Positions 4,275-64,000 of a stretch of DNA of 64,000 nt are shown here, in pieces. The stretch's first letter is position 1; every line of letters begins with the position of its first letter. This DNA comes from a virus. Lineage: Duplodnaviria > Caudoviricetes. The stretch is taken from the IMG/VR virus record IMGVR_UViG_3300028048_003161. The stretch is one strand, 5' to 3'. A program made the position numbers and the translations under genes. The notes beneath the pieces were generated by a model that ran no database searches, was not told where the DNA came from, and saw only the letters and a program-made list of their open reading frames with translations.

Positions 4275-4279
4275 GAGTA

Positions 4280-6240: not shown

Positions 6241-6369
6241 GCGTGGGCATACATAGATAGACATAGTAGTTGGTTTATCTTTTACATATAGAAAATTGGT
6301 TTAACATAATAATTAGCATAAAGAGTATTAAATAATAAATTTATTTATTTTATTTAGGAGGATTGACTT

Positions 6370-7773: not shown

Positions 7774-7795
7774 AAATAGTTTGGAGGACAGCTGA

Positions 7796-14551: not shown

Positions 14552-14574
14552 AGAGGTAGGAAAAGAGGAACAAG

Positions 14575-15844: not shown

Positions 15845-15891
15845 CAGTTAGAAATAGAAGTAGGACAGTTAAAATATCTGGGGGAGATACA

Positions 15892-16521: not shown

Positions 16522-16542
16522 GAATGAAAGGTAGATGGTACA

Positions 16543-17211
16543 GTGAGAAAAGAGAAGTTTGACATTGACAATTTAAGAGATTGTATAGTAATACATAGAT
16601 ATGATGGGAGCATTGACATTATTGATATAAGACAGGCAAGAGAGAAAGATAGAGTTATTGAGTCTGAATACTATGTCATACCTGAAGAAAGCAATATTGG
16701 GTTTATTACAGGCATCAATAGAAAATATGTTACAGATAATAGAGAAGCATTAGGGCTTGCACTTGTTTATAATAACAGTAAGTTTAAGAGATCTAGCATG
16801 AATGTTATTGGTTATACAAGATGCTCATTACATTATAGGGACAATAGTGCATATGATAAGTTTATTATATACAATGGGGATAGCTTAAGAGATGCAGTCA
16901 AGGTTAAAATAGACAACACAGATCTTGAGTTTGAGGTAGTTGGTGATTTTGCTATTTGTAAAATGGCTATTTTACCAAGTATAGCTATTGTACCAAGTAT
17001 TGATATAAGATATACATATGTTAATAATTTTAGTACACTAGTTTCTAAAGATGATACAATTGAATTGATAGATTCAGCAGGTAATACTAGAGATTTAACA
17101 TATGAATGTGATGTACATGCAATGACAAGCGAAGAAGATAAGTACAGAATTATGCTTAATGAACTTGCTATATACATTGAGAATGAGAATCTATGCATTT
17201 CGAGACTATAG
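16543..17211 (+). CDS. hypothetical protein, paralog of 15892
   Basis: FDIDNLRDCIVIHRYDG; FSTLVSKDDTIELID. Confidence 0.8.
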   Translation: MRKEKFDIDNLRDCIVIHRYDGSIDIIDIRQAREKDRVIESEYYVIPEESNIGFITGINRKYVTDNREALGLALVYNNSKFKRSSMNVIGYTRCSLHYRDNSAYDKFIIYNGDSLRDAVKVKIDNTDLEFEVVGDFAICKMAILPSIAIVPSIDIRYTYVNNFSTLVSKDDTIELIDSAGNTRDLTYECDVHAMTSEEDKYRIMLNELAIYIENENLCISRL

Positions 17212-17225
17212 TATGATACATTGAT

Positions 17226-17504
17226 ATGAGGAGAAAGTTCCTAGAGAAACTAGACAAAGATAGTTTAATTGAGAGGCTTATGATAGCTGAAGAGTTACTC
17301 AACGAGGAAAAAGCAGATGCACGAGAATGGACAGGTTCAGACGGTATGCTAGGAAAAATTAGCAGTATTGTTTATAACGAAAACAGCGTTAATTATGATA
17401 AGGAACTTGCTGAAAAGTGGACAGACTTAATAAACAAAATTGAAGTCATGTCATTTGGAGCAACTTACAGAATAAATGAGAGGATACAACACTATGATAA
17501 ATAG
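17226..17504 (+). CDS. hypothetical protein
   Basis: 92 aa ORF in the gene run. Confidence 0.65.
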   Translation: MRRKFLEKLDKDSLIERLMIAEELLNEEKADAREWTGSDGMLGKISSIVYNENSVNYDKELAEKWTDLINKIEVMSFGATYRINERIQHYDK

Positions 17505-18432
17505 AGAGATACAGAGTTTCTGTGTACAGGGCACTAGAAAATCACATGCAGACTTGAATGGTAATACACATGATATGAGAGTATTAGAATTTGAGACTAG
17601 TCGTGGTTTAAATAATAAAATGCAATACAAAAGTTTAACTACAACTGGTAGAATAGATTTTGTACAGGATGGTTTATGGGATCAGCGTTACAATGTTATA
17701 ATAAGAGACAATGACTATGATGACATTAAGCATCCACATTTTGATTCTTTGAAATTAAACCAGATTACATTAACATGCCCTAATGATACAGATATAAAAT
17801 TGAATGTACTTTGGAATGACGGAACTAAGGAGGTTATAGACATAGTAGGTGACCTTTTTACACATGTAATGTTAGGATTTAATCATTATGCTACAAGAAT
17901 AGGCTGCTATGAAATTACACTAACACTTACAGATGATTCATTGATCATGTGGCTAACAGACATGTCTAGATTTGACTACGTTAAATGGGTAGAAGTTCAG
18001 CAGGTCAAGAAAGAGGACAACAGGGTTGTGTTTGACTTTGATGCATATGATAGTAAAGATAAGTTGTCATGTGATAAGTTTAAGGGCAGTAACTCAAAAC
18101 TAATGTGCAGTGGTCATATTGTGTTTAATACAGATCATAAAACACTGACAGCAGAGACAAGAGGTTATGATGCATATGGATTAAGAGAATATGACCTTAA
18201 TAAAATGAAAGATGAGAGGGTACTGTATATTGAATTGGATGATACCAGTGATACAGAAGTGAAGATCATGGGAGAGTTGGAGAATGGCAGTATCATAAAT
18301 ATGAATGTACGTGAGGTATTGGACATGTATGCAAGACATGTGATAAATGACAATGAAATAAATTGTGGAGCATTAAAAGTCATAGTAGATTGGGGTAAAA
18401 TTGTGATTAAACTTTCACATAACTTGTATTGA
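17476..18432 (+). CDS. hypothetical protein, MLG-motif family (two motif copies)
   Basis: EVIDIVGDLFTHVMLG and IINMNVREVLDMYA. Confidence 0.75.
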   Translation: MRGYNTMINREIQSFCVQGTRKSHADLNGNTHDMRVLEFETSRGLNNKMQYKSLTTTGRIDFVQDGLWDQRYNVIIRDNDYDDIKHPHFDSLKLNQITLTCPNDTDIKLNVLWNDGTKEVIDIVGDLFTHVMLGFNHYATRIGCYEITLTLTDDSLIMWLTDMSRFDYVKWVEVQQVKKEDNRVVFDFDAYDSKDKLSCDKFKGSNSKLMCSGHIVFNTDHKTLTAETRGYDAYGLREYDLNKMKDERVLYIELDDTSDTEVKIMGELENGSIINMNVREVLDMYARHVINDNEINCGALKVIVDWGKIVIKLSHNLY

Positions 18433-18493
18433 GGGGGAATGATGCATAGGACTAAACTTGACAGGCACACAATAAAGAAGATGAGGCAGTGAT

Positions 18494-18837
18494 ATGAATG
18501 AGCTAAGAGATTGTGTAGTAGTAGAGTTCACTAATGGTATCAAGTTTTACATTGGGTTTGACAGTAGTAATAAAAAATAGAACATTGGGGAATATGACTT
18601 ATGTGCATATTTAGGTGAAATTGGCATATATAATAAGTTAATGAAGCATCTAAAGGATGAAAATAGTGCATTGGGTAGTTTATGTGTTCCTGTGGAGAGA
18701 TACTTGACATATTGGAAGATATATGTATACAGGAAATGTTAGGATATGAACTTATGGATAAAGTAGAGTTCAGTTATGCAAGTGGAGCTGGCACACTTAG
18801 TTTAGCAGTGAAATGTGCAAATGAGAGTGTGCAATAA
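18494..18837 (+). pseudogene. degraded MLG-family gene
   Basis: MNELRDCVVVEF..., in-frame TAG at 18578, then a frameshift into GEILDILEDICIQEMLGY... Confidence 0.55.
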
Positions 18838-32265: not shown

Positions 32266-32322
32266 TGCATAGAAGTATAAAAAGAGAATTTTTATTTTTA
32301 ATTAAAGTTGGGAGGAATAAGC

Positions 32323-33662
32323 ATGTCTGATGTAATTGAGCAGTTATATGGAGATAGGGTACCTGGTACAAATATAGTGTTTACACCTGAAAATGTTGTA
32401 GAGGAAATGATGAGTAGACTTCCTGAAGATTTCTGGACACCTGACAAAAGAATATTGGACATATGCAGCAAGTCAGGTAGATTTCTGAAATATGCATTTA
32501 ACAAATTATATAAATCACCTTATTTAAGTGAAATGACACCTAATGAGAGAAAGAGGCATATAATTGAAAATCAGTTGTTTGGACTGTCAAATGACTTTAC
32601 ATGTCTAGTTTTGGCAGAAACAACACTATATGGTTTTGCACAGTATGGAAAAAGAAACATTAAGCTTGTATCAAATTTAGAGGCAGTAGTAAAAAGAGTA
32701 GATAGACAGAGTGAACTTGGAAAGGAGACAGGTTTTGATATGCATTTCGACTTAGTAATTGGAAATCCCCCTTATAATAAGGGCATGGATATTGATTTCA
32801 TAGATCTTGGCTATGAATTAAGTAAACAGTATACAGTGATGATAGTGCCTGCAAAGTGGCAAACAGCAGATGCAAATCAGAGGATCAGTAGTAAAATGAG
32901 TTATGGACAGTTCAGAGAGAAGCTAGTCCCTCATATGAAATATGTATGTTTTTACCCTGACTGCTTAGACGTTTTTGGTATTCAAGAGCAGTCTGGGGTT
33001 AGCTGGTTTATTTTAGATAAGAGCAATACATATGAGGATAGTTGCACAGTAGAAAATAAGTGTAACTTACAGAAATATGCTAATGGCATTGAGAAAAGAG
33101 ATATAACTCACAGACAAACCTTATGGAACATAGGAAATAAAATAATTGAGCACTTAAATAGGGGGGGCAGTACAAATCATATGAGTTTAGTCCTATAGAA
33201 AATAGAAAAGCATACACACTTAACATGAATACACAAATGGCACTTGGTACATGTTCATCTGGTGCATGGGATTTCGACATGGGTGGAATAAAGAAAAGCT
33301 TTATAGGCAAAGGTGGAGTATTGTTTAATCAGAGTGGACAATTGAATCTAACAAATAAAGCACGCTTATTAAGAGGGGTTGAAAAGTCAGGCATAAGTGC
33401 ATCAAAAGATGTCTTTACTTCTGATGACATAGACGAGTGTAAATCTTTTTATACATGGATAAATAGCAAATTTACAAGGTTTTTTATACTGATCAACATT
33501 AGTTCATTAACAATTTTAAATGACAACACATTCAGGTTTGTCCCTTGTCCTCCTCATAATTCCTTTGATCACCTGTATACAGATAAGGAGCTGTATGATT
33601 GGTTTAACCTACCAGAGGAATATAGGGAAGTCATAGATAGTATCCTACGAGACCGTAAATAA
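32323..33662 (+). CDS. Eco57I-like N6-adenine DNA methyltransferase, frameshifted in a G7 tract (33161-33167)
   Basis: VFTP (motif X), ILDICSKSGRF (motif I), VIGNPPY (motif IV); G8 would join the TRD ORF ending FRFVP...YTDKELY. Confidence 0.85.
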
Positions 33663-39980: not shown

Positions 39981-41551
39981 ATGCTAGCAACTCATAGAGT
40001 GAGAGACAATAATAAAACAATTGGGTTTATAGTGAATGGAGTGTTTGCATCAAATATAACCATTAGACAGAATATAGGGCTGATTGACAATTTAAAAATC
40101 ACTAAGAATGGAGTAATCAAGGCAAAAAGAGATTACCCGAAGTTACTTATAGGGACAGTGTAATAAGGAGTCTGTACAATAAACTAATGAAGAATAATCC
40201 TTTTGTAAGAGATATTCAAAAGGACTTAACGCGCTGGAAACAAGACCCTGAGCATGGAATTTTACAGTTAGAGGGAGCAAGACAAATAGGCAAAACAACA
40301 GAAATATTGAAATTTGCATACAGAAATTATAAGTATGTTATCTATGTAAATTTAGCTAGTGACATGTATAAGTTTCAAAAAGCATGCGAGCAGGACATTA
40401 ATTACTTTACAATGCTTGACTATACAGAAAGAGCACATTTACCAGGGTATGTTGACAATAGGGATACAATACTAATTATTGATGAGATTCAAGAGAATAT
40501 GGAAATGTATAACAACATTAGAACATTTGCAAATAATCTAAATTGTGAAATCGTAGTAACAGGAAGTTACTTGGGCAGATTGTTAGCTGGGCTAAAGAAA
40601 CCAGATGAGGACACAGATAAAAAGGCATTTATACCTACTGGAATAGACCTATTAAATATGTATCCTTTATCATTTGCAGAGTTTTGCAGAGTTTTTAATG
40701 CAGAGGACACATTAATGAGCATAAGTTTATATGGAGAGTCATCTGACAGGAAATATAAGAAACTTGATAAGCTGTATGATATATACAGACAAATAGGGGG
40801 TTATCCAGCAGTTATAAAAGAATATATTAAGACACAGGATATAAGTGCATGTCATATGAGAATTGGAAACTTACTTGAATTATTCAAGGCAGAGTCTAGA
40901 GAATATTTTCATGATGAGGTGGAGATAGAAATATTTGACATGGTATATGATTATACACTTTATGAAATGTGTTCAAATCATGCTGGAACAGCTAAGAGGA
41001 CCATAAAAGATGTGACAAGAATAGTAGAAGATAAAACAAAAGGCATGACATCAACTAGGGAGTTGAGAAATGCAATCACTTGGCTAAGGTATTCGGGTAT
41101 ATTGGGTACTTGTATATTGGCAGAAAATGGAGAGACATCATTCTCTACAGTAAAAAAGTTTTACTTTTTTGATTGTGGCGTTACATCTTATTTGGCTAAG
41201 AGAGCAAATATAGATGCTAGCAGTCTAGATGGAATAATTACAGAGACATTTGCATTTGATGAGTTGATAAGATTATACAGTAAAAATACAAAAGATCCAA
41301 AAGTTAGACCTTATTTGTACTATGGTAGACTTGGTAATTACGAATTAGACTTTTTGGTTTGCAGTACAGACAATAAGAAGTATGGAATAGAAATTAAAAC
41401 TAATACAGGAGATCCTAAATCTCTAAAGCAGTTTTTGAATAAAAGGCTTGTAGATAAGGGGATAGTTGCAAAAAGAACAAAGGGTGGGCACTCTGAAAAA
41501 TTGGATACAATACCAATATACACAGTTGGTTGCAGATTTCCTTATAAATAA
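39981..41551 (+). CDS. AAA_14 ATPase with DUF4143 and PD-(D/E)xK-like C-terminus; N-terminal tag split off by a frameshift in A5 at 40124-40128
   Basis: GARQIGKT (Walker A), ILIIDEIQ (Walker B), VTGS, PLSFAEF, GGYP, YFFDCG, ELDF...IEIK. Confidence 0.85.
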
Positions 41552-45822: not shown

Positions 45823-46209
45823 TGGTTTGGTGTAGTTGTGCTTTGTTGTTATGAAAACAGACACACTAAGGATAAGTTGAGATTTAATTTGTTATGACAG
45901 TGCTAATTTAATAGAGTTGGCATGACCAATAAAGTGTAATAGCATTATAGATAAAAATGAAAGTAATTAAATTAGAAGAAAACTAGGACAATTTGTAAGC
46001 AAGTATTAAAAAGAATTAGACAATGGACTAATATGATAAATACACTTGAAATTTAGAGTGGACAATGAATATCAATAGGGATAGCATTGCAATTAAATGC
46101 TATAGACAATAGTAGTTTAATTTGGTTTGGATAAATAGACAGAAAATAGTATCAAGCGATACACAAGATTTGAAAATAGATAAGCATTTAGGTTTGGAGG
46201 TATAGACAC

Positions 46210-46695
46210 TTGGAAATGAAAGGCAGTTGTAACTTAATGAAAGACAGTGTAGAAAAAGACATTGATAAAGATTTCATAGAACTTATAGAAAATGGTAAGG
46301 TACTCCTAAGGTTAAATTTGGAACAAGAAATAGGGTTAATTGCTACAGACAACCTTTATACTAGTTTTGAATATGATTTAACATTTGATAAAATTTGTGG
46401 TAAAATAGTAAAGAAACCTAGTAAGCTCAGGTTTGGAGATACCAGCATAAGATATGAAATCAATGGACACGGGTTTAATGTGTACGCAACAATGAGACAG
46501 ATTAAGACCATTGAAGTTAAAGACATACTTGGGTTAGATATGAGATTACATATAAATGGTAATGATGCATTGGTGTCAGACCTTATGGAAGTAAGTAGTT
46601 TAGTTTCAGGAGATTTAGATACATTGTTTGAAAATAAGTGGAGACTTTCAGAGATTGATTCAACAGTGATATTAAGTAGAGAAAAGCAGTGTTAA
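46210..46695 (+). CDS. hypothetical protein, MLG family
   Basis: IELIENGKVLLRLNL; INGNDALVSDLMEVSSLVSG. Confidence 0.75.
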   Translation: MEMKGSCNLMKDSVEKDIDKDFIELIENGKVLLRLNLEQEIGLIATDNLYTSFEYDLTFDKICGKIVKKPSKLRFGDTSIRYEINGHGFNVYATMRQIKTIEVKDILGLDMRLHINGNDALVSDLMEVSSLVSGDLDTLFENKWRLSEIDSTVILSREKQC

Positions 46696-47233: not shown

Positions 47234-47250
47234 CAGGGGTCTAAAAACCA

Positions 47251-48150
47251 GATGCAGTGGGCGATTAAAGGGGGATGCAGTGGACAGTTTGAGGGTGAAC
47301 CATAGGAGATAGTAGGGTTGATGCATAGCGATTAAAAAGAGTGATGCATAGGGATTAAAAAGGTTGATGCACTGGAAATAATGAGGGTTGATACATAGTA
47401 AAATTAGTGTGTTGATGCATAGGTAAAATAAAAATTGAGTCATGGGTGTTAAATTTGATAATGCACTGGTGGAAATTTAGATGCTTGGGTAGGAAAATTT
47501 AATATACATAGTAAATTTAGGAAAAATGATACCATTGGTGCTAAAAGGGATGCAGTGGTCTAAAAGGGTGTTGCATGGGTATAAGAGAATGATATCATTG
47601 AAAAGGTATTGTGATACCAGTGGTATAAAAAAGATGATACCTTGGTATTGTGTTTAGTACCATAGTTTGAAAAAGTGAGGTACCATTGGTATAAAACTTG
47701 ATGCTCTGGTAGAAAAGGATAATACCAGTGGTCTAAAGGAATATACCATTGGTATAAGGTTGTTTGTATCATTGGTATAAGGTTGTTTGTATCATTGGTA
47801 TAAGGTTGTTTGTATCATTGGTCTAAGAGGATAATACCAGTGGTCTAAAAAGTGGATGCTTAGGTCTAAAATGGTTTGTAACATTGAGAGGATAGGAGTG
47901 TAGCACTGGTTAAAATGGAGATACTAGGGCATAAGAGAGTGATGCTTTAGTATAAAATGGTAATACCATTGGAAAGATGTGGTGATACCAGTGGTGGATA
48001 AGGGTGATACCAGTGGTATAAAGTGATAATACCATTGGTGAAAAAAGGTAGATACTTTGGTATTAAATAAATGTACCATTGTTGTAAAAGGTAGATGCTT
48101 GGTTAAACAGTAAGGTGAGGCACTGCCTTTGTGAGAGATGCCATTGGTCT
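47251..48150 (+). repeat. degenerate 21-23 bp phased array (GATGCAGTGG / GATACCA[G/T]TGG)
   Basis: Motif starts at 47251, 47274, 47297, 47320, 47343, 47366, 47390, 47414, 47437 and onward to ~48137. Confidence 0.8.
47747..47822 (+). repeat. perfect 23-bp tandem repeat CATTGGTATAAGGTTGTTTGTAT, three copies plus a partial
   Basis: Unit starts at 47747, 47770, 47793 and 47816 (partial). Confidence 0.95.
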
Positions 48151-48194
48151 AAAAGAGTTATAACAGGTTGGTTTATTGAGAGGACTATTGTAAA

Positions 48195-48635: not shown

Positions 48636-48639
48636 GTAA

Positions 48640-51600
48640 AAGGAAATGACTTATGGATTAAATTGTGTGGACATCCAGTAGTATAGATAATATGATAAAT
48701 TGGTATGTTATTAGACAATGAAGGCTCTAGTTTTGTAATGTAATAAACAATAAGAAAAAGAGAATGACATATGAAAGTTTAGTTGTATGTGTGTTAGGAT
48801 AAATTGGTGTGTTATTGGACAATAAAAGGTCTAGTTTTGTAATGTGAGTGACAATGAGAGAGTGGAGTATAGACAGATAGGAAATAAAAAGAATTATGAG
48901 TGAGATTATGTGGACATTTAGGTGTTTGTGTATTATGATAAATTGGGTTGTTATTGGACAATGAGAGGTCTAGTTTTATGGAATAAATGACAATAAGAAA
49001 AAGAGGTATAGACAGGTAGAAAAGGTTATGAATAATAGTAGTTTAGATAGAACTTTTATAAAATAGTAATAGGCATTTAGATGTGAATAATAAGAGAAAA
49101 AGTGCGCTTATTGGTCTTTTGTTGATCAGGTTTTGTGAATAAAATCACATGCAGTATTAAGGGATAGATAAGTAATGATTTGGTGTAATAACATTCGATA
49201 GGATAAAAGAGATTGAAAGTATATTGAATAGACAATTTGATAAGTGAGAGTTGTCTTTAGTTAAAAGAGAATTGACCTTTGATTGTGATATAGACAATTA
49301 AGAAAGAATAGGAGATTGAATTATGTGGAATAGACATTGGTTTTAATATATGAAATAAAATAATGAAGTATATGGACTTAGGTGTTTTGGTTGATATGCT
49401 TTGATTTTGGTATTAGGTATTTGTGGTTTATTGGATCAGACAATGATTTTGTGTGTAGACTATGTGTGTGGACAATTAGAAAAATGGAAGTAACTTTTGG
49501 TTAAAAAATAAGTTGCTTTTATTAGGAAATAAAGTATAAAATAGTTAATGAGAGGAACAATTGTGTTGTGTTATATACAATTGTTTTTTATTGCTAAGAG
49601 ATAAAGAAAATTAGATAACCAGTGACTAAATTGTTGAGGTGTTGAATATGTGTGAATTAGGCACTGATAGGTTTGGGAGTGACTTTTGTTAAAATAGATA
49701 GAGATAGGAAAGAAGGATAATAGACTTTTATTTTGATTAAGTAAGATAAAGGAAAAGAGTGGATGGCTTTGATTATGATTGAAAGAGATAATGAAAAGGG
49801 TAGATGGACATTTATTAGAATTGAAGGAGATAAGGGAAAAGATAGAATGGCTTTGGTTATGATTGAAAGAAATATAAGAAAAATTGAAAGAGATATGATA
49901 AAAGAGTGAAGGACTTTTGTGTTGTAATATGGAGTTAGAAATGTTTGGTTTATATTTGGAATAAATTGTAAAGGACTTTGATTGAAAGATAATAGGACTT
50001 TGACTAAAAGAGAAAGAGATAAGAGGACTTTGACTAAAAGAGAAAGAGATATAAGAAAAGAGAGAGGATCTTTGATTAAAATTGAAGTGTTTTGTGTTTA
50101 ATTGAAACTACTTTTGAAAATTGAAATTGGTTTTGAATGAAAGATAATAGGTCTTTTGATAAATGAAAAGGACTTTTTGGAATTTGAAAGAGAAATTGGA
50201 ATTGGTTCAGGACGTTTTATTTTTGAAAATGATTAGGAAATAGACATTGTTTTTATTAAAGTTAGAAAAATATTTAATAATAAAATTTGTGGTATGTTAT
50301 AGGATTTTGAATTGGTTGGGAGATATGTTCCAGATTTAAAATTTAAGGGATTTAAGGGATTTTTGGTGGATTTTGATATAAATGTATGGGTGGGGGATAT
50401 TGGTTGAAACGTGAGTATAACAAGAAATTTTTATTTTATTTTAGTTAAAAAATTAGTTAATTTTGTTATGTAATTTGAAAAATGAACGACGTTTTGATTT
50501 TTGTTGTAGGTCTTGATTAAAAAATTGAATGTGCTTTTTGTAAAAATTGAAAGAGAATTTGAAAAATGAATTAGACTTTTGTTTTGTGAATTGATGTTTT
50601 GGAGAAAGTGAAAGAGATTGAAATAAAATGGAAAGACTTTGATTAAAAGTGAAAGAGATTGAAATAAAATGAAAAGACTTATGTTAAGTGAGGTAGTTGT
50701 TTTGATTTGTGGAATTAGACTTTTGTGGAAGTGATAGGTGTTGAAATGTTGAATAGTTAGTCTTTTATTAAAAGTGGTGGAGATTGAAAGAAAATGTGAT
50801 AGACTTTGGTTAATAAGTGATTGTGTTGGAATATATGGGATAGGTCAATGATTGTTTATGGTGAGTGTTGGGAAAATATGAATTGGACTTTTGTATTAAA
50901 GATAGGAGATTGAAATGATTGTTAATGGACTTTTGTATTAAAGATATGTACAATTAGTTAATGAGATAGTGTTTAAAGGTAGGTGGATAGATCAATGGTG
51001 TTTGTGATAGGATTGTTAGAATAATGGTATTGACCTTAGTGTTTTGATATGAGGGCTTTTGGTATTTTGATAGGTATTGAAAATAGTATAGGGTAGACAA
51101 TAGGGAAGTGGTAAAGAGATTGAAGTTGGGTGGGAATAGACAATAGGAAAGTGAATGGTTTGGTGGTTTGTTTAAGTGGACAATTGAAATGAAAGTAAGG
51201 TATGAGAGTTAGTGTGAATAGACAATTAAATTATGATAAGGAGTTTTAATAAAATAATAAGTTACTTTGATTAGATATGTATGGTGTTTTAGAAAAGAGT
51301 AATAGACAATAGCAAGTGTGATAAAGTAGGTGTGTGGACAATGAGTAAAAATTGAGAGAGATAAAAAAATTGATAGATAGACAATGTGGAAATAGTGATA
51401 TACCTTGTGATAGTTGATAAGTGTTTTAAAAAGATAGAATAGGCAATGAATATGGTTGATAGATTGTTGTGGTGTTTGAGGTAGACAATAACTTTTGTGA
51501 TAGTCGACTTTTATATGAATTGTGGGATATGAGAAATAAAATAAATAGCAATTATATTTGTATTTAGACAATTGAAAATATAGATAGATTTGATAGTAAT

Positions 51601-52000
51601 TTATGTATAGACATTGATATGAGTAATTGAATATTTTATGATAGATAGAATAGACAATTTAGTGTCTAGTTTTGAATTGAAATAGACAATGTTAATTGTA
51701 AGTAGGTGTTGTTAAAATTGATAGATATACATTTGATTTGAAATATGTCAATGACTAGTTTATTTAGACATTTAAGAAAGGAGTTGAATTAAAATAAACG
51801 AGATAGAGTAGACAATTTTAGGTCAAGTTTTGAAAATTGGTTGACATTTGAAAGTGGGTGAAAGATATGGGAATTTAAGTATAGACACTTAAGGTAAATA
51901 GAGAGTAAGAAATAATGTCTTTTTGGCTGACTAGTTATGAAAAGATATAGACATTAGCTAGTTAAATAGACAATAAAATAAAGAGTGACTTTAGAAAAGG
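48640..52000. other. 3.4-kb non-coding, C-depleted repetitive tract (candidate replication origin)
   Basis: No credible ORF; C occurs mostly within AGACAAT/GGACAAT/GGACTTT/AGACTTT; several local duplications. Confidence 0.6.
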
Positions 52001-52010
52001 AGAGATAGAC

Positions 52011-52697
52011 ATGGCTAAGAATTTATTAGACGAGAGTAAGGTATATTTACCTAATTTTTATAACAATGGAGAATGGGTTGAAAACCCTACTTTGAAAGTG
52101 GCAGGCAAAGATATAGATAAGAGAGTCATTGAGTTTATGGAAGAATACTATAGATTTTTGTTTAATAGCACATTTTTAACAATGGCATCTTTGTTGTGGT
52201 TAGAGAGTAACCTGTCAAGTGTGAAAAAGACCATTGAATTGTATAATGAGAGTTGTTATGAGGTTGATAGATTGAATATGAACACATCTCAAACTAACAT
52301 TATGCATGATAAAAAGAGACTGGAAAAGTACTTTAGCCCTGAATTGTTTAAGAATATCATGTATTATCCAGAGGAGCATTTGGAACAGGCATTTGAGACC
52401 CTTGCTCAGCTTGAGTTAAAGTATATGAAGAAAAGTAAAGAGTATAGAGAGTCTTTGGTGGTTAAGGTGCCTAGGACAGTGTTGTGTAAGAGTGTTGACG
52501 ATAATACATGGGGGTTATTGAAGCAGTTTATTAACTGTTATAGTAAGGAACGTATTAAAAAGATTGAAAGACTTGAGGACGAAACAGTTGTACCTGCTGT
52601 AATTGGTTATTACAATTATTTGATTAGTAATAACAGGTTAAGTGAGGTAGATAAGCAGAGGTTACATGAAATTAGACAATTATTGTGTTTGGAGTAA
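52011..52697 (+). CDS. hypothetical protein, paralog of 53362
   Basis: AAGGAG RBS; LFNS, KRLEKYF, VIGYYNYLISN. Confidence 0.85.
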   Translation: MAKNLLDESKVYLPNFYNNGEWVENPTLKVAGKDIDKRVIEFMEEYYRFLFNSTFLTMASLLWLESNLSSVKKTIELYNESCYEVDRLNMNTSQTNIMHDKKRLEKYFSPELFKNIMYYPEEHLEQAFETLAQLELKYMKKSKEYRESLVVKVPRTVLCKSVDDNTWGLLKQFINCYSKERIKKIERLEDETVVPAVIGYYNYLISNNRLSEVDKQRLHEIRQLLCLE

Positions 52698-53361: not shown

Positions 53362-54126
53362 GTGCATACAGACGCGGTCAAGGTATTAAAGAAATACTAC
53401 AGTGATATTGAGAAATATAAGCTGACAGGTGCCAAAGAAGGCATTATGAATTATGTGGACGAGACACGATTGGGAAAGATTGAAACACTCTTTGACATTG
53501 TGTTCAATAGTGACAACATTACAGACGAGACTAAGTTCTTTATTAAAACAGATATGTCATTAGCTGAGGTTAATAGGGAAGTAAATAGGTTGCGTACAGA
53601 AGTATCTAGGAGACTTAAGAAAAATATAAGAGAGACATCTTATAATAATACAACGACAGTTGTTAAGAGAGATTGTACTAAATTAGAGAGTGTATTGACA
53701 GATAAGTTTTTAAGGTCAATCGCTTATGATGAAGTACTTGACCAAGAGGAATATAAAGAGACATTATTAAAAATGTTAGATACTTTTGGAGAGAGAAATA
53801 ACCTTAGAAATAATTTGAATATACCTATTGATACAGACATATGTGAAAAGAGCGACAATGTTGATAGTTCAGACTTCTTTGAAATGTTAGAAAGTCTGCA
53901 GGTTTATTTGAGTAAGAGAATTGACTTAATTATTAAGGCAGTTAATGATGACAGGGACTTTGTTGGGTATTTTAACTATCTCTTGAGTAATAAAGGATTG
54001 CTTGACGAAACAGTGCAAGAGGACAGAAAGAAGTTGATTAAGTTCTTGAATAATGAACCTATCGACAGTGACGAAGATAGTGAGCATTTAGAAGAAAGTG
54101 ATAACAGCGAGGGTATAGAGGTTTAA
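53362..54126 (+). CDS. hypothetical protein, paralog of 52011
   Basis: VFNS, TKLESVL, FVGYFNYLLSN. Confidence 0.85.
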   Translation: MHTDAVKVLKKYYSDIEKYKLTGAKEGIMNYVDETRLGKIETLFDIVFNSDNITDETKFFIKTDMSLAEVNREVNRLRTEVSRRLKKNIRETSYNNTTTVVKRDCTKLESVLTDKFLRSIAYDEVLDQEEYKETLLKMLDTFGERNNLRNNLNIPIDTDICEKSDNVDSSDFFEMLESLQVYLSKRIDLIIKAVNDDRDFVGYFNYLLSNKGLLDETVQEDRKKLIKFLNNEPIDSDEDSEHLEESDNSEGIEV

Positions 54127-54365: not shown

Positions 54366-55682
54366 TTGAGGTCGTTCATGTTAAAAAAGAAGTTAAAGGA
54401 AATTTATAGTGTAGACACTATAAGTCAAAATAAAAGTTGGGAAAAAGTAGAGGAACAGTTAAAGCAGTTTGAGGGGCAGGAGATGGAATTGGATATGACA
54501 GGGGTAAATGTAATTGACCCTTGGAATTGTGATTCGTTCAAGAATATTATTAAGAATGACAATCTGTATTTGAAATTTACTAATGCAGAGGATACAGCGA
54601 ACAAGATTAAAATGATATATGTGCTTCAGGGTTTAGACCATAGACATGTAATCAACGAGGTAATTGAGACAGAAGCGGAAAAGACACCTGAAGAAATTAA
54701 GATAGAAACATTTGGAAAAGCTTTGATGCCTTATTTTAAGAAGGACGAGCAGACAGGAATTGTGACCTTTGTAGTTGCAGATAAGTTCAGTCAGTTGCAT
54801 AACACACTAACAGCGAATTATGTGAAATATGTAGTTGGAGAAATGAGCAGGGAGCAGGGAGTTACTGATTTTATCATTGATTTAGGTAAGCTAAGCATCC
54901 TTGATAATGTCATTGAGGCATTCGTTGAGGTTATTACATATTATGAAAAGTTGGGTATCACAATTGAAGTGAATACCGACATTCCTGACACACAAAAGCA
55001 ATTCAAGTTATTTTTATACAAGAGTAAAGCAAAGAATTATACAGAGGCAGAAAGATTGCAGGAGTTTAAGAAGTTGAAGCCTGGCACTGCTGGTATACTC
55101 ATTAAGTATAAAAAGAGTAGAGCACTTGATGATTTTGGTAGACATGGTAAAGGTGAGGTAGTGTCTAGTAGAATAGCAAGATTCTTGGGCATTACAAATA
55201 GTAAGCGTGGACCTATGTTTTCTGTGGAGACATATAATCAGAATACTTTCTACACACATTTGAATTGGGCACTTGAGCATGATATGGAACAGCCTACAGA
55301 ATTAAAGTCAGACAAGCTGGATATTGCATTGGAACAGATTGGTTTTGACAATAAGTTTATGGGTAGTAGCTATCATTTTCTGTTTCCTGTGCAGAGGGAT
55401 AAGTCAGAAAGCATCAATGTTATTGTGGACATTGATGAAAATGGTTATAACATCAAAAAGTTAATGACAATACCTGAAAGAATGAAAGAAGTCTTTGATG
55501 ATTGGGAGATTGAATATGATCATGAGTCATTGGACAAGTTTATTGGGCAGACAAAAGAGAAGTTAGCTCAGGCAGAAAAAGAGGAAGAGCAGGGCGAAGA
55601 TAAAGAGACACAAACAGAAATGGGACAAGTTGCATTGGACAATGAAGGACAAGCAGACTTAAATAAGAATGGACAGGTATAA
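54366..55682 (+). CDS. hypothetical protein, possibly with tandem STAS-like domains
   Basis: 438 aa; MELDMTGVNVID and FIIDLGKLSILD resemble the STAS beta-strand D-hydrophobic motif. Confidence 0.75.
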   Translation: MRSFMLKKKLKEIYSVDTISQNKSWEKVEEQLKQFEGQEMELDMTGVNVIDPWNCDSFKNIIKNDNLYLKFTNAEDTANKIKMIYVLQGLDHRHVINEVIETEAEKTPEEIKIETFGKALMPYFKKDEQTGIVTFVVADKFSQLHNTLTANYVKYVVGEMSREQGVTDFIIDLGKLSILDNVIEAFVEVITYYEKLGITIEVNTDIPDTQKQFKLFLYKSKAKNYTEAERLQEFKKLKPGTAGILIKYKKSRALDDFGRHGKGEVVSSRIARFLGITNSKRGPMFSVETYNQNTFYTHLNWALEHDMEQPTELKSDKLDIALEQIGFDNKFMGSSYHFLFPVQRDKSESINVIVDIDENGYNIKKLMTIPERMKEVFDDWEIEYDHESLDKFIGQTKEKLAQAEKEEEQGEDKETQTEMGQVALDNEGQADLNKNGQV

Positions 55683-55694: not shown

Positions 55695-57971
55695 ATGAGT
55701 GAGTATCTGGACAAATTGGAACAAGAGTTGAGGTCAGAGGGCGTTGGGGCATCTCTGACATCTTCTAGTGCATGTGTATCTCCAAGTGACTTTGATTTAA
55801 GAACTATACTTGAGATTGAACAGATTACAGGGTTTAAGTATAGTGACGAGCAGAAAGAAATTCTTAAGTACAGAGGTAATGCTTGTATTCTTGCATGTGC
55901 AGGTAGTGGAAAGACAAGTACAACAGTACACTTGATTGCAAAGAGAATCAAGACAGGAGAGATTAAAGATGTCAACAAGTTGGTTTATGCAACTTATAGT
56001 AAAGCTGGCAAAGATGAAATGAAAGATAGACTTGACAAGTTACTCAAGCAGCTTGGAGTAAATAAGCAAGTCAAGGTTTGTACATTACACTCTTTCTTTT
56101 TGAATATATTAAGACTCTTTGGTGTTACAGCAGACATTATCAAAGATGGGGATAGACGCAGAATGATTTTAGAGTCATGTAAAGATGCAGGGTTTATTCC
56201 TAAGGATGATGAATTGATGACAGTTGATAATTTAATTTCATATCAGATTAACTGCTTGTTATCAGATAGGAAAGCCATTGAATGTCCTGTGAATACACTT
56301 GAAGATTTGACTCTTGAGCAGTATTCTGCTATTAGGGCAGGGTATACTAATAGGAAAACAGCAGCTAAGTTAATTGATTATGATGATATGCAAACTTATC
56401 TCTACTTGTGGGTGGTCAAGTTTGCAAAAAGTCCTAACCCTCAACAAAGTGAGACAGCACGTCAGATTAGACAGTATTGTCAGGCAATGTGGCATGACTT
56501 CTACATTGATGAGGCTCAGGACGTCAGTAAGATTCAATTTGCTATACTTAAGGGATTGATTACTAATCCTGAAGAACCTAATAAGTTGGTTGTGAATTTG
56601 ACACTGATTGGTGATGATGATCAGTGTATTTATGCATGGAGAGGTAGTGACCCGAGTATTATTTTAACAGCAGCACCTATGTTCAATATGAGAAACTTTG
56701 TGTTAAGTACAAACTACAGGTGTAAGAGTGAGATTGTCAATTATGCAGCTACAGGCATTGTGTTTAATGACAAGAGGTTTAATAAGGGGATGTCAGCTCA
56801 TGAAGAGGGTGGACAGGTCAAAATTGCAGTATCACGTAGAAAAGATTTGTGTTCATTAAGTATTGTAGGGCTTAACCAGATTAAGAAATGGATTGAGCAG
56901 GGAGATAAAGAATCAGACATTGCAGTACTGGTAAGAAATAACTTTCAAGCATCTATTTTGAGTAATATGTTGCTTAGGGAAGGAATATATTGTGCATGTA
57001 CAGAGGAATCTAAACTTACAAAGAGTAGTATGTATGCAGATATTAAGATGCTGATTGAAATGTGCGAGCCTTGTTGGAAAACAGCAGTATTGAGCAATAT
57101 GCTTTGGAAAATGTGTAAGTACATGAATACTGGTACAGCTAGGGCAATTGCTAACTTTCAGGATTCAAGTGCATTGAGCATTAAAGATGCTCTTGGTTGG
57201 CTAATTAAAGAGTTTATTGACACTTCAATTCAGTTTAATGCAAAGGTCACAGTTAGCCTGCAGTCAAAAGAGAAAATGAGATACTACATTAACAGAATGA
57301 TGAATGACACTAAGGCTGATATGATTGCATTATACAATGCATTATGCTGTGAGGATAAGGCACAGTGTTTAAGAACCTTAACTACATTCTATTTAACTTC
57401 AACAGGTTTCTTGTACAAAACAGAGGATAAACAGAGGTCAATAACTGGACTAGTTGTGTATATTAACAACCTTGTGAAAAAAGATGGGTTTGATAACATG
57501 AAAGACTTCTTGAGAGTGACCGAGCAGTATGAATCAGGTAGAATGGGTATTATTGGAGATAAATTGACCATTTCAACAATTCACAGTGCAAAGGGTAGAG
57601 AGTGGAAAGACGTGATCATGCTTGCATGTGATAATGTGAGTCAACCATCATTTGATGGAATAGTCAAGATGATAGATGACGGTGTACCTGTTGCTGATAT
57701 ATGTGACAGATTGGATGAGGATAGACGTCTGTTCTATGTAGGTAATACAAGAGCAAAAGAAAACCTGCTTATTGTTACTTATGTAGAGCCTAGTGTATTT
57801 ATTCTTGAAGCATTAGGTTTATTCAAGGCAAAAGATGGATTTTCAAACAACAGTAAAATTGTTGAATTAGCAAGTGCAGGAGAGGGGCTTGGACCTTTCA
57901 AGGGTGTTGCCGACGACCTGTTATTAAAGAAAGACAGTAAGTATTTTTATGAGATAGACTGGCAGAAATAG
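55695..57971 (+). CDS. UvrD/PcrA/Rep superfamily-1 DNA helicase
   Basis: ACAGSGKT, IDEAQD, IGDDDQCIYAWRGS, LSTNYR, STIHSAKGREW, EDRRLFYVGNTRAK. Confidence 0.95.
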   Translation: MSEYLDKLEQELRSEGVGASLTSSSACVSPSDFDLRTILEIEQITGFKYSDEQKEILKYRGNACILACAGSGKTSTTVHLIAKRIKTGEIKDVNKLVYATYSKAGKDEMKDRLDKLLKQLGVNKQVKVCTLHSFFLNILRLFGVTADIIKDGDRRRMILESCKDAGFIPKDDELMTVDNLISYQINCLLSDRKAIECPVNTLEDLTLEQYSAIRAGYTNRKTAAKLIDYDDMQTYLYLWVVKFAKSPNPQQSETARQIRQYCQAMWHDFYIDEAQDVSKIQFAILKGLITNPEEPNKLVVNLTLIGDDDQCIYAWRGSDPSIILTAAPMFNMRNFVLSTNYRCKSEIVNYAATGIVFNDKRFNKGMSAHEEGGQVKIAVSRRKDLCSLSIVGLNQIKKWIEQGDKESDIAVLVRNNFQASILSNMLLREGIYCACTEESKLTKSSMYADIKMLIEMCEPCWKTAVLSNMLWKMCKYMNTGTARAIANFQDSSALSIKDALGWLIKEFIDTSIQFNAKVTVSLQSKEKMRYYINRMMNDTKADMIALYNALCCEDKAQCLRTLTTFYLTSTGFLYKTEDKQRSITGLVVYINNLVKKDGFDNMKDFLRVTEQYESGRMGIIGDKLTISTIHSAKGREWKDVIMLACDNVSQPSFDGIVKMIDDGVPVADICDRLDEDRRLFYVGNTRAKENLLIVTYVEPSVFILEALGLFKAKDGFSNNSKIVELASAGEGLGPFKGVADDLLLKKDSKYFYEIDWQK

Positions 57972-62684: not shown

Positions 62685-64000
62685 ATGTTATTAGGTAATG
62701 ATTATAGGAATGATGCTGTAGAAAAATTGTATGGAGACAGAATCGGAGATAGTTCAATCATCTTTACTCCTTGGGATACAGTAGAAAATATGTTAGATCT
62801 AATACCAGAGGACTTCTGGACACCTGATGTTACTATATTAGATATGTACTGTAAGTCAGGTAGGTTTCTTGTTGGGGCATTTAGAAAATTATATAATTCA
62901 CCTTATTTGGCATACTTGTCAGAGAGCGAGAGAACACTACATATCTTAAATAAGCAGTTATTCGGTTTGTGTGCTGACATGACATGTATGTTATTGTCAG
63001 AGGCTAATTTATATGGTCATGCTCAATATGGTAAAAAGCATATTAAATTAGTTGACACATATGATTATAACAGTGTAGTTAAGCAAAGAAAAGATGGTAT
63101 TATCAATAGGACATTAGAAGGGAAGTTTGGACAAATGAAGTTTGATCTGGTCATTGGAAATCCTCCATACAATAATGATGCATACATAGATTTCGTAGAG
63201 ATTGGACATAAATTAGCCACACAGTATAGCTGTTGGGTAACACCTGCAAAATGGCAAGCCAAAGCAGATAAAAAGAACGACATGTTCAGAAAAGCAATAG
63301 TGCCTTATATGAGTAAGATACTATTTTATAAGGACAGTCATGATATATTCAGCATACAAGAATGGGGTGGCATATCATACTATTTAGTAGATAAGAGTCA
63401 AAAAAGTAATAAAGTACAGATAAGGACAACCTGTAATAGTAATGATAATCTTAATTCAAGCTTTGAAGAACATGATGAGTTAAGTCCTGTACTATACAAT
63501 AGAAAAATTTTGCAACTAATTGGCAAAGTTGGTACACTTGGGGAAGGATTTAAGCAGTCGTTGTATGTAAAAAATACAGATCATGGGGAGAGTTGCATCG
63601 CTGGTACACTTGGGTTTAAACGACAGACATTTGTACATGAACAGGACAGAGGTGAATCTGCTATGAACAGTAACTATGTGGAGATAATGCAGGGAGATCA
63701 AGTATGTGGATACAAAAATAAAAAAGATTTATATACTCAATTGAACATTGATAAATGGAAGTGCATATGTTCAATTATGCCTGGTGCAGTATCACAGTTT
63801 GATCAAAACGGTCAAGTGCTGGGCATGATTAAGATAAGCATTATTGGACCTAATCAAGTACCTAAGGGCAGTTTTCCTGTGTTAAAATATTTTGACAGTA
63901 AGGAAGAATGCTATTCATTTGTGAGTTATTGTAATACAAGGTTAGTTAGTTTTCTGTTCTATTTGGGTGTATGCGGAACAACCTTAACTAAAGAGTTCTT
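62685..64000 (+). CDS. Eco57I-like N6-adenine DNA methyltransferase (runs off the window end; not in the ORF track)
   Basis: My translation: MLLGNDY...LYGDRI...IFTP...PEDFWTPD...ILDMYCKSGRF...MKFDLVIGNPPYN...PAKWQ...FDSKEECYSFVSYCNTR. Confidence 0.9.
   Translation, partial: MLLGNDYRNDAVEKLYGDRIGDSSIIFTPWDTVENMLDLIPEDFWTPDVTILDMYCKSGRFLVGAFRKLYNSPYLAYLSESERTLHILNKQLFGLCADMTCMLLSEANLYGHAQYGKKHIKLVDTYDYNSVVKQRKDGIINRTLEGKFGQMKFDLVIGNPPYNNDAYIDFVEIGHKLATQYSCWVTPAKWQAKADKKNDMFRKAIVPYMSKILFYKDSHDIFSIQEWGGISYYLVDKSQKSNKVQIRTTCNSNDNLNSSFEEHDELSPVLYNRKILQLIGKVGTLGEGFKQSLYVKNTDHGESCIAGTLGFKRQTFVHEQDRGESAMNSNYVEIMQGDQVCGYKNKKDLYTQLNIDKWKCICSIMPGAVSQFDQNGQVLGMIKISIIGPNQVPKGSFPVLKYFDSKEECYSFVSYCNTRLVSFLFYLGVCGTTLTKEF

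Follow-up and report, generated by a model that had tools for sequence, protein, structure and literature searches.

The DNA analysed here, a stretch of 64 kb (the window), contains a gene-free tract of 3375 bp, followed on the same strand by genes for a conserved 228-aa protein, a distant paralog of it, a 438-aa protein and a UvrD/PcrA-type helicase (Table 1). Comparison of all gaps between ORFs of at least 100 aa confirmed this tract, described in a preliminary account as ORF-free over 3.4 kb, as the largest non-coding gap of the window, and the number of credible genes within it was zero.

Table 1. Features of the tract and its surroundings (positions in the window; L013, close relative).
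Feature	Position	Strand	Remarks
Satellite mini-array, six type-A boxes	45960..46210	+	ends at start of gene 46210
Gene-free C-depleted tract	48636..52010	+	3375 bp; 64 GAC boxes on 10.5/21-bp lattice
Left flank zone, type-A boxes	48700..49480	+	consensus (A/T)T(A/G)GACA(A/T)T; about neutral versus L013, 86% identity
Conserved unique island 1	49300..49655	+	overlaps end of left type-A zone
Central zone, left half, type-B boxes	49680..50243	+	(G)GACTTT(T)G with TTGAAA/GATTGAAAG words
Conserved unique central island	50236..50575	+	AT-rich with G-rich patch
Family-wide ~90-nt core	50335..50423	+	2-3 GGATTT repeats ~10 nt apart, then GGGTGGGGG run
Central zone, right half, type-B boxes	50574..50930	+	not alignable to L013
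Right flank zone, type-A boxes	51090..52010	+	
228-aa all-alpha protein, conserved	52011..52697	+	syntenic marker of tract
254-aa distant paralog of 228-aa protein	53362..54126	+	E 4e-5; same position in relatives
438-aa protein, STAS-like domain at residues 116-222	54366..55682	+	two consensus promoters upstream
UvrD/PcrA-type helicase	55695..57971	+	syntenic in all relatives

The plus strand of the tract was composed of A.377, C.039, G.239 and T.344. The extreme C depletion noted earlier was thus readily confirmed (3.9% versus 10.7% for the whole window), with C fractions of.099 for intergenic DNA outside the tract and.069 for 4-fold sites. GC skew reached 0.70-0.78 in the tract as against 0.25-0.56 in the rest of the window. 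The further claim that C mostly occurs within GAC was correct for about half of it (64/132). G accounted for 24% of the tract but only 9.8% of 4-fold sites, indicating that its composition is not simply the 4-fold-site equilibrium; low C as a simple neutral equilibrium was therefore dropped. Four of the ten lowest-GC 200-bp segments of the window lay in the tract, and two of the ten overlapped the central island. Coding under another reading was dropped as well, all three stop codons being frequent. Minus-strand ORFs of 114-120 aa were present, as expected from the rarity of G on that strand, and the one of 120 aa lay in DNA not conserved in the close relative L013. The tract sequence was identical between independent JGI and ENA assemblies, which settled the concern about an assembly artefact.

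Two kinds of box populated the tract: TAGACAAT-type boxes (type A) occupied both flanks and GGACTTTTG-type boxes (type B) the centre. GACAAT occurred 22 times, at 48714-49471 and 51096-51969 and never between; 13 of the 15 GACTTT lay in 49681-50928, and TTGAAA (n=26) was mostly central, so the zoning proposed from the first inspection, with GACAAT in the flanks and GACTTT and TTGAAA in the centre, was borne out. None of these motifs was found on the reverse strand of the tract, all boxes having a single orientation. Fourteen of the 26 occurrences of TAGACAAT in the window were inside the tract, and the last type-A box overlapped the start codon of the 228-aa gene (ATAGACATG). The local duplications listed previously were real (49987-50051, period 30, 97% matches; 50605-50677; 50886/50928), and the left half of the central zone held local tandem copies of 30 and 42 bp. 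In the satellite mini-array, gaps were 32, 42 and 44 between the first four boxes, then 34 and 66. A separate palindromic 22-23-bp array lies at 47234-48194, with similar arrays elsewhere; by eye, other arrays in the window seem to have C-poor linkers as well.

The spacing of the boxes followed the helical repeat of DNA. In 88% of cases, the gap between neighbouring GACs deviated by no more than 2 bp from a multiple of 10.5 bp; chance would give 48%, and GACs in coding DNA gave 46%. By number of turns, we counted 10 gaps of 2, 6 of 3, 19 of 4, 2 of 5, 5 of 6, 5 of 8 and 3 of 10. Pairwise GAC distances gave a mean cosine of 0.44 at period 10.5, against 0.083 +/- 0.043 for random placements, the highest of 2000 trials being 0.244. 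The presence of odd turn numbers argues for a helical constraint rather than for one duplicated unit. Only 8-10 bp of each unit were conserved, the linkers carrying no information, and box gaps varied from 19 to 105 bp without long exact repeats. These properties ruled out a CRISPR array, in which near-identical repeats of 24-48 bp alternate with unique spacers of similar length. A reading of the boxes as sigma-70 promoters was also rejected: despite the likeness of T(A/G)GACA to a -35 element, no conserved -10 followed downstream, and promoter-like sites were not enriched (53 vs 43 +/- 6.7).

We then compared the tract with L013, ~85% identical to the window. Most of the tract was unconserved even at 85% genome identity: the arrays were evolving neutrally or had been replaced, their positions diverging at about the 4-fold-site rate, and the left half of the central zone showed heavy indel turnover (372 gap columns). 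Indel lengths included 11, 11, 21, 21, 42 and 63 bp, and whole units had been gained and lost. C inside GAC was preferentially retained, being kept at 34/35 positions versus 36/47 for other C (p=0.011); GAC was 91% identical and control trinucleotides 80-88%. Two unique islands departed from the neutral pattern. Island 1 was 93.8% identical versus 85.6% at 4-fold sites (p=2e-4) and contained an inverted repeat, ACAATTGT...ACAATTGT, with a T run after it. The central island, centred in the tract, was 95.6% identical (p=3e-6 against the same 85.6%), and the two 100-bp bins that begin at 50200 and 50400 were 80% AT.

To our first observation by eye of a ~90-nt core in the central island, nhmmer added confirmation in six lineages, with one plus-strand match per tract-bearing locus, always within the tract. 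The L002 match appeared only in leave-out nhmmer runs, and the core was not detected in L020. In L012 the gap is only 556 bp, yet the core is present. Blastn-short found no similarity between distant tracts. A hairpin following the G run was present in L012 and L009 only and was discarded as not conserved.

A gene-free array tract upstream of the 228-aa gene and UvrD module recurred in seven lineages (window/L013, L001/2, L003, L005, L009, L012 and L020), so that the tract cannot be called missing in relatives. Its length ranged from ~0.56 to 5.6 kb and was of kilobase scale in 6/7 lineages; where long, the relatives' contigs measured 100-465 kb, and contig assemblies broke inside the tract. 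C depletion was seen in six lineages, strong (1.3-3.9%) in window/L013, L001/2 and L005 and moderate (4.8-7.7%) in L009, L012 and L003; in L003 and L020 it was graded mild or nearly absent. A strong lattice was found in four lineages (window/L007/L008/L013, L001/2, L005 and some L020 sub-arrays). Motifs were lineage-specific whereas the architecture was retained: the independent motif families of different lineages all used 21/42-bp spacing, plus 3- and 5-turn gaps. The called genes in the sequence covered here were all on one strand, with a GC content of ~34%. No relative was found in IMG/VR, and phage records gave no DNA similarity.

The UvrD assignment of the preliminary description was solid (Pfam 1e-39), and its two strong promoters matched 11/12 (54178) and 12/12 (54300) consensus positions. 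The paralog pair also noted there exists, though the relationship is weak (22% identity). The 228-aa protein belongs to a divergent family with 333 cluster representatives at E<=1e-3. Its model gave no Foldseek match and VIA matches of at best Z<=4.1, and consequently no fold was assigned; matches to sigma region 4 (Z 3.1-3.9) were at noise level. Tblastn found no match to it in PLSDB or phage records. In the 438-aa protein, the STAS-like domain aligned with RsbS over 96 residues (Z 9.2, rmsd 2.9); the protein had no tblastn match in PLSDB and nothing in the ESM Atlas, and Foldseek on its model returned nothing. These conserved neighbours were acidic (pI 4.7-6.1) and without a convincing DNA-binding fold, and the small neighbouring ORFs matched no Pfam family. 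The relatives' loci carried three RNase H genes and a PC4-like ssDNA binder in L020 and a DHH (RecJ-like) protein in L003. With UvrD/PcrA throughout, the neighbourhood has a replication/repair flavour.

Known replication and partition genes were searched for around the tract. Pfam and PHROGs searches of most ORFs of at least 120 aa at 23.9-64 kb, together with precomputed Pfam calls for the genes of the relatives' loci, identified no Rep, DnaA, primase or partition family; an adjacent initiator gene of Rep_3, RepA_N, Rep_trans, DnaA-like or other known family, as expected of an iteron origin, was thus lacking in this set. No ParA, ParM, TubZ or known centromere-binding gene was present among the ORFs scanned at 44-64 kb (at least 120 aa, plus two smaller) or in the relatives' 20-kb loci, and the tract did not adjoin an operon for a partition NTPase and adaptor. 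The only ParA-like gene, in L003, has a T2SSE ATPase as its neighbour; we read this as pointing to a pilus role.

Taken together, these results support the view that the tract is a cis-acting region with many protein-binding sites, since its boxes are one-oriented and on a lattice, the C of GAC is retained and the architecture recurs with different motifs. The many initiator sites postulated in the preliminary description fit as such protein-binding sites, which would presumably be occupied. Most likely, the tract is a candidate replication or maintenance site of the element, of a scale not described for bacteria. Its identification as a protein-coated maintenance locus acting in cis, most likely a unidirectional origin, is the account we favour, held at somewhat less than an even chance. 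In its favour are the conserved AT-rich unique core at the centre, the co-oriented direct repeats at whole helical turns and the replication/repair-flavoured surroundings; the central island, an AT-rich unique segment beside the repeats, is a candidate unwinding element. Against it stand the lack of a known initiator among the ORFs scanned, acidic neighbours that show no convincing DNA-binding fold, a box number well above that of known iteron origins, the near-neutral evolution of individual array positions, the mild C depletion of L003 and L020 with no core detected in the latter, and the lack of a significant DnaA-box cluster or of any skew or orientation switch. Only two TTATNCACA matches were found (49082 and 49134), not above chance, both conserved in L013, and a DnaA-box cluster was dropped as not significant; such clusters occur in many, not all, iteron origins. 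Within the window, GC skew and gene orientation were unchanged across the tract; the pattern usual for a bidirectional origin is thereby excluded, and a unidirectional one gains no positive signal either. A bidirectional origin or terminus is not supported, given this likeness of the two sides, and we found nothing in support of a packaging region, another suggestion of the preliminary description.

According to the favoured account, the tract would work as duplex DNA under a coat of sequence-specific proteins and would contain the vegetative replication origin for a family of extrachromosomal elements from gut Firmicutes that are giant and coded on one strand. Replication would start in the central island, which holds the core with its GGATTT repeats and G run. 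The flanking kilobase arrays, type B inside and type A outside, would present their boxes in one direction and on the same helix face, every 2, 3, 4 or more turns. Element-encoded factors could bind them co-operatively, building or restraining an initiation complex and setting copy number in an iteron-like manner. Because genes are co-oriented on both sides and skew does not switch, we propose that replication is unidirectional and co-directional with transcription. With C nearly absent from a sense strand of 24% G, neither strand would form G-C hairpins, Rho would find no C-rich loading sites on an RNA copy, and R-loops would be favoured by the non-template strand, which would suit priming of an RNase H or Pol I type. 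We infer protein binding, origin function, replication direction and any role of R-loops or Rho from the features shown above, namely composition, zoning, lattice, conservation, synteny and lack of RNA structure; an origin is plausible. More tentatively, and with greater doubt, the tract may represent a type of maintenance locus not described before, with a ~90-nt core in kilobases of fast-evolving, helically phased and zoned arrays with an almost C-free strand, a bacterial counterpart of the 'regional' satellite-like centromere or origin. It would be served by new families of initiator or binding proteins, possibly the 228/254-aa paralogs, and possibly replicated from an R-loop primer in one direction, which would also explain the co-orientation of all genes covered here.

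The main rival is a centromere or tethering site. Here the tract would be a very large partition site, whose binder coats the phased boxes and links them to a segregation motor or the nucleoid, and selection for incompatibility would account for the rapid divergence of motifs between lineages. Known centromeres are indeed defined by phased direct repeats, and a repeated, phased array is what we found, its architecture kept as motifs differ between lineages and its units gained and lost whole; the binder is only putative. We nevertheless consider this reading unlikely, as the ORFs scanned at 44-64 kb and in the relatives' loci include no ParA, ParM, TubZ or known binder gene, the palindromic array at 47234-48194 is an equally good candidate, and neither the conserved AT-rich unique core nor the strand composition is explained. 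Regulation offers a different and still less probable explanation. As a sink, the boxes would titrate a transcription factor, which would also control genes 46210 and 52011, both preceded by boxes and with translation start regions that type-A boxes overlap; as a long untranslated leader, the tract would be a Rho-proof, terminator-free spacer crossed by RNA polymerase on its way to the UvrD operon. The flanking genes are co-oriented and no terminator was found. Rho loads on C-rich RNA at rut sites, and the C-poor, G-rich transcript would have none. The STAS-like domain next door has a fold typical of partner-switching regulators, and the sigma region 4 matches of the 228-aa protein are a lead at most. 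These matches are within noise, however, and the proteins acidic; 64 or more sites over kilobases go far beyond known operator arrays, the conserved core is again left unexplained, and the strong promoters directly upstream of the 438-aa gene make read-through unnecessary.

It is about equally improbable, or slightly more so, that only the islands are functional, for example as a promoter/operator of the downstream operon, and that the arrays are a neutral slippage satellite which inherited its lattice from a duplicated unit and its low C from mutation bias on the non-template strand. Divergence of array positions at about the 4-fold-site rate or their outright replacement, the weak conservation of boxes over non-boxes at short distance, the L012 core in its 556-bp gap, assemblies that break within the tract and the C-poor look of linkers in other arrays (by eye) would all suit a satellite. 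Neutral decay, on the other hand, should erase unit positions equally, and instead 8-10 bp stand out from random linkers; C is retained more in GAC than elsewhere, G far exceeds its share at 4-fold sites, the motif families of separate lineages share 21/42-bp spacing and also 3- and 5-turn gaps, and a kilobase-scale tract has been kept in 6/7 lineages. A long non-coding RNA or small-RNA array acting as RNA, the alternative named in the preliminary description, appears highly improbable. The tract does lie on the sense strand of co-oriented genes with a few promoter-like sites (e.g., 48668 and 48911), and RNA poor in C would lack structure and might scaffold protein. Searches for tRNAs and Rfam families, however, gave no match (Rfam, at gathering score or E<=1), the mean folding z was -0.4 with an MFE weaker than that of the flanks, and the core showed no consensus structure or covariation, RNAalifold predicting 0 pairs; the tract thus resembles no known family and does not fold above background. 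Furthermore, most of it is unconserved even between close relatives, and a 10.5-nt lattice would be expected of B-form duplex DNA rather than single-stranded RNA. A CsrA-type GGA sponge was dropped because the 70 GGA counted match the ~73 predicted, by hand calculation, from composition.

For the replication and segregation of the 100-465 kb elements of uncultured gut Firmicutes, sequence homology gives no entry point, since their proteins are mostly orphans. The locus offers one: a clonable core with box arrays, a lattice that predicts co-operative binding on one helix face, and a protein family with hundreds of divergent members that marks the site. New here are the lattice, the identity across assemblies, the recurrence in seven lineages, the contrast of neutral arrays with conserved islands and the core shared by six lineages. 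If the tract is an origin or centromere, no other bacterial array of that kind would come near it in size; it would show satellite-like turnover around a fixed core and would furnish a replicon part for building vectors for such elements or for tracking them. The near absence of C from one strand raises a question of its own, relevant to Rho, R-loops and strand-specific mutation.

Among known systems, iteron-type theta origins (P1 oriR/incA, RK2 oriV, R6K gamma, F oriS) have 3-15 iterons of 17-22 bp adjoining a recognisable rep gene. The tract resembles them in its co-oriented direct repeats at about two-turn spacing, which would place bound proteins on one face, in the AT-rich unique segment alongside and in extra repeat sets that could serve copy control. 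It differs in having 64 or more boxes of 8-10 bp, of two kinds, over 3.4 kb (~5.5 kb in relatives), zoned symmetrically round a core, with no known Rep nearby and one strand almost free of C; we know of no iteron origin with more than ~15 repeats. R-loop-primed unidirectional origins are exemplified by ColE1 RNA II, with RNase H and Pol I, and by the mitochondrial CSB G-run. They share with the tract a G-rich, C-poor non-template strand, here with a conserved G run in an AT-rich core; the RNase H genes near the L020 tract extend the likeness, and co-oriented genes fit unidirectional replication. Unlike in those origins, a primer transcript and its promoter are only hypothetical, GC content is low overall and G clusters are scarce beyond the core, and ColE1-type origins have no kilobase box arrays. 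Archaeal Borgs likewise have co-oriented genes, in their case within each replichore. Their repeats are near-perfect, whereas the tract has units that are degenerate except for the short box, a helical lattice and one syntenic locus around a conserved core.

Borg tandem repeats are described as recently formed and rapidly evolving, also creating protein regions (PMC9879509), so that these giant extrachromosomal elements and the tract family have in common pervasive fast-evolving direct repeats. For plasmid centromeres the cited papers describe repeats arrayed in phase on which a nucleoprotein scaffold is built, as we propose for the tract (sopC, PMC3177203; parC, PMC2241845; parH, PMC3130281; TubR-tubC, PMC6009700). 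The F sopC array comprises 12 units of 43 bp, ~4 turns, matching the commonest gap of the tract (PMC3177203); R1 parC has 11-bp iterons (PMC2241845) and TP228 parH degenerate short boxes with AT-rich spacers (PMC3130281). Known centromeres measure ~0.1-0.5 kb and abut their partition operon, in contrast to a tract of kilobases that has no adjacent partition genes, non-palindromic boxes in two zoned classes and a conserved unique core at its centre. 'Hodor' gut megaplasmids carry a non-coding region of >2 kb next to Rep_3, designated a putative oriV from context alone (PMC12934698); that account, as far as covered here, mentions no phased arrays, C depletion or conserved core. Hodors have 45-47% GC with Rep_3 and ParAB adjoining, whereas the tract family has ~34% GC, no Rep_3 near the tract, marker proteins without homologue in PLSDB and called genes, as far as covered here, all on one strand. 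Shared by the two is nonetheless a non-coding region of this size in extrachromosomal elements of gut Bacillota (>300 kb), with a separate helicase gene in the module (PMC12934698).

The spacing of the boxes marked the tract as an element of duplex DNA. Gaps between neighbouring boxes were quantised, clustering at 21, 32, 42, 52, 63, 84 and 105 bp, and the mean cosine of pairwise box distances was sharply maximal at 10.5 bp (0.44, versus 0.083 ± 0.043 for random placement, highest value 0.244 over 2000 trials). Within the tract, 88% of neighbouring gaps differed by no more than 2 bp from a multiple of 10.5 bp; chance would give 48%, and GAC in coding DNA of the window gave 46%. Such quantised spacing reflects B-form duplex DNA and puts all boxes on one face of the helix. 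Alignment of all boxes restricted information to 8-10 positions, with the consensus (A/T)T(A/G)GACA(A/T)T for type-A boxes (flank zones) and (G)GACTTT(T)G for type-B boxes (central zone); linkers carried no information and no -10-like element was present 3' of the boxes. Taken together, the evidence points to an element that works as duplex DNA, would be coated on one face by proteins recognising its sequence, and has a unique AT-rich core that is conserved.

The preliminary description of an ORF-free, extremely C-depleted tract with zoned motifs, genuine local duplications and its C mostly within GAC was borne out in full. The tract is the biggest gene-free gap in the window (GC ∼34%), where the + strand carries all credible genes and G>C skew is strong throughout. 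C amounted to 3.9% of its + strand, against 6.9% at 4-fold sites, 6.8-12.3% in the remaining large non-coding gaps and 10.7% in the whole window. G made up 23.9%, the 4-fold-site value being 9.8%; compared with these sites, the tract is thus poor in C and rich in G rather than merely at their equilibrium. GAC accounted for 64 of the 132 C. GACAAT (22 copies) was restricted to both flanks, GACTTT (13 of 15 copies) and most TTGAAA lay in the centre, and the tract's other strand had none of the three. Because C is nearly absent, G-C hairpins cannot form on either strand, and an RNA copy would be without the C-rich sites required by Rho. Selection may have produced this C-poverty, with its hairpin and Rho consequences, or it may be a by-product. 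In the only left-flank stretch without boxes, the DnaA-box consensus TTATNCACA is matched exactly twice, a count not above chance; both sites are kept in the close relative L013.

Two independent assemblies, L018 (JGI 3300026549) and L019 (ENA ERZ27252073), carried the tract without any difference from the window, excluding an assembly artefact; the sole difference over 5 kb upstream of the 228-aa gene was a palindromic array one 23-bp unit shorter in L019. The tract also proved to be present in relatives, lying gene-free 5' of the 228-aa gene and UvrD module wherever upstream DNA sufficed. No shared sequence was detected by blastn between distant tracts, and motifs differed: AATGTATAT at 21-bp spacing in L001, and C-containing AGCTTTGATAA-type units in L005, where they follow a 42/63-bp lattice. 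The lattice was clear in three lineages (L001, 92% of gaps; L005, 80%; L007, L008 and L013, 87-89%) and confined to some sub-arrays in L020; the same analysis gave no clear signal in L003 and L009. In the window, L001 and L009, the flank zones had in common a looser box family, T(A/G)(G/T)(A/T)CA(A/T)T, which appeared inverted as the L001 central motif. There, the 21-bp-spaced AATGTATA is the reverse complement of flank boxes TATACATT/TAGTCATT, thus one box in opposite orientations, and strand bias is unchanged although box orientation flips. Assembly breaks within the tract were frequent: L002, L004, L007 and L008 stop in it, and the tract of L001 contains four 100-N gaps.

Features of the tract, its surroundings and its counterparts in relatives (window positions unless a locus is named)
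Feature	Position	Remarks
AAA_14/DUF4143 ATPase and two Eco57I-type N6-adenine methyltransferase paralogs	40187-41551, 32308-33198, 62685-63998	first paralog appears truncated
Six type-A boxes upstream of gene 46210	45960-46210	first four spaced 32, 42, 44
Palindromic array, just upstream of tract	47234-48194	about 40 units, 22-23-bp spacing
Tract	48636-52010 (+)	3375 bp
GACAAT zones	48714-49471, 51096-51969	
DnaA-box matches	49082, 49134	reverse strand, 52 bp apart
Left type-A zone		86% identity to L013, about neutral
Left type-B zone		76% identity to L013, 372 gap columns
Island	49300-49655	93.8% identity to L013, p=2e-4
Central island	50236-50575	95.6% identity to L013, p=3e-6
Core	50335-50423 (+)	
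Replaced segment	50576-51500	54% identity to L013, effectively replaced
228-aa gene	52011-52697 (+)	
254-aa gene	53362-54126 (+)	
Sigma-70 promoters	54178, 54300	
438-aa gene	54366-55682 (+)	
UvrD/PcrA-type helicase gene	55695-57971 (+)	758 aa
L001 tract centre	4227-7827	3.6 kb, practically C-free (0-0.7%)
L001 tract flanks	3027-4200, 7800-8549	
L001 UvrD; L005 UvrD	14570-18712; 14874-18827	1317-1380 aa
L001/L002 tract		5.5 kb, C 1.3-1.5%
L005 tract		5.4 kb, C 2.7%
L013 tract		3.7 kb, C 3.8%
L003 tract		2.2 kb, C 7.7%
L009 tract		1.2 kb, C 4.8%
L020 tract		5.6 kb, C 9.3%
L012 tract		0.56 kb, C 5.4%

Inside the central island, which is AT-rich with a G-rich patch, a ∼90-nt element common to six lineages was first spotted by eye and then seen in an alignment. 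It consists of two or three GGATTT repeats ∼10 nt apart and, ∼20-40 nt further on, a GGGTGGGG-type run, and AT-rich DNA flanks both sides. An nhmmer profile of this core matched each tract-bearing locus once, in every case within the tract and on the + strand, with no further matches over the window and 15 loci. In five lineages the core lay near the tract centre, and in L003 towards the gene; the more distant L020 gave no match. Leave-out models recovered L012, L009 and L003, not the window and L005, and the L002 match was obtained only in such runs. L012 retained the core within a gap of just 556 bp; thus the core stays constant and the arrays vary.

Divergence from L013 (∼85% identical) was gauged against 4-fold sites of four flanking genes (85.6%; 363 same, 61 different). 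Indel lengths in the tract included 11, 11, 21, 21, 42 and 63 bp. In alignable arrays, 34/35 C within GAC were retained versus 36/47 other C (p=0.011), and GAC conservation was 91%, eight control trinucleotides ranging over 80-88%. Zone-by-zone identity, unit-size indels and GAC-C retention therefore indicate that the arrays behave as redundant, fast-turnover site sets around fixed unique elements.

Recognisable proteins near the tract were few: the UvrD/PcrA-type helicase, an S24/S26-like peptidase, CheW, a GNAT acetyltransferase, Eco57I-type methyltransferases and an AAA_14 ATPase. A search of 1.84 billion representatives placed the 228-aa protein in a large orphan family (333 cluster representatives at E<=1e-3, 181 at 1e-10), nearly all 220-240 aa and without annotation, with homologues on contigs of 100-465 kb. 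Among three distant members inspected, both with enough flanking DNA adjoined a UvrD helicase, and one sat downstream of a 5.6-kb gene-free tract. The confident all-alpha model (pLDDT 89) had no Foldseek match and no convincing solved relative in VIA-align (Z<=4.1), where several rows were sigma region 4 at noise level. The proposed paralogy of the 254-aa protein stood, but weakly; the two strong promoters are indeed near-perfect sigma-70 sites upstream of the 438-aa gene. This 438-aa orphan, conserved beside the helicase, carries a STAS-like domain (residues 116-222; Z 9.2 to RsbS; Pfam STAS E 0.006) of anti-sigma-antagonist fold, and its model suggests a similar alpha/beta unit N-terminal to it. 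All three proteins are acidic, and so weak candidates for the box binder. Relatives' neighbourhoods add RNase H, a PC4-like ssDNA binder and a DHH protein, giving a replication/repair flavour. The syntenic UvrD helicases of L001 and L005 are long because of an inserted intein (Hint and Intein_splicing matches; LAGLIDADG in L005), which the window's copy lacks. The unit core of the palindromic array gradually changes from GATGCATAG into the palindrome TACCAGTGGTA. As RNA or ssDNA, this array far exceeds shuffled sequences in folding stability, and a dimeric protein may bind to it.

Our preferred reading, held tentatively and at somewhat less than even probability, is that the tract may be the origin region of the element. 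GC skew and gene orientation were the same on both sides, and therefore the bidirectional form of the origin proposed earlier, like the terminus proposed with it, is unlikely; a unidirectional origin would show no change in either. Neither a Rep nor a Par family turned up among the ORFs scanned at 23.9-64 kb or in relatives' loci. A centromere or tether is the foremost of the alternatives, albeit an unlikely one; the palindromic array is itself an alternative centromere candidate.

A regulatory sink or leader is less probable again. The last type-A box before gene 46210 sits between ribosome-binding site and start codon, as it does at gene 52011, which hints that the putative box binder may also regulate both genes; within the tract, promoter-like sites were not enriched and no terminators were found. 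Slightly lower still we place the reading that neutral satellite arrays surround a functional core of small size: array turnover and the closer pair L007/L008, where the box effect on conservation was not significant, would suit it, and GAC retention against L013 speaks for constrained boxes. That the tract acts as RNA, the long ncRNA of the preliminary description, is very improbable: Rfam gave no match at gathering score or even at E<=1, folding z-scores averaged -0.4 (down to -5.8 in the neighbouring palindromic array), and RNAalifold predicted no pairs in the core.

A limited literature search found no description of five features jointly: kilobase scale, two zoned box classes, a lattice kept despite motif change, a near C-free strand and a conserved core. 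Among known systems, iteron origins come closest, together with centromeres such as sopC (12 x 43 bp; PMC3177203). Among gut megaplasmids, the nearest published parallel is the >2-kb non-coding putative oriV of the Hodors, assigned by context alone; with 45-47% GC and Rep_3, however, Hodors form a different family from the window's element (PMC12934698).
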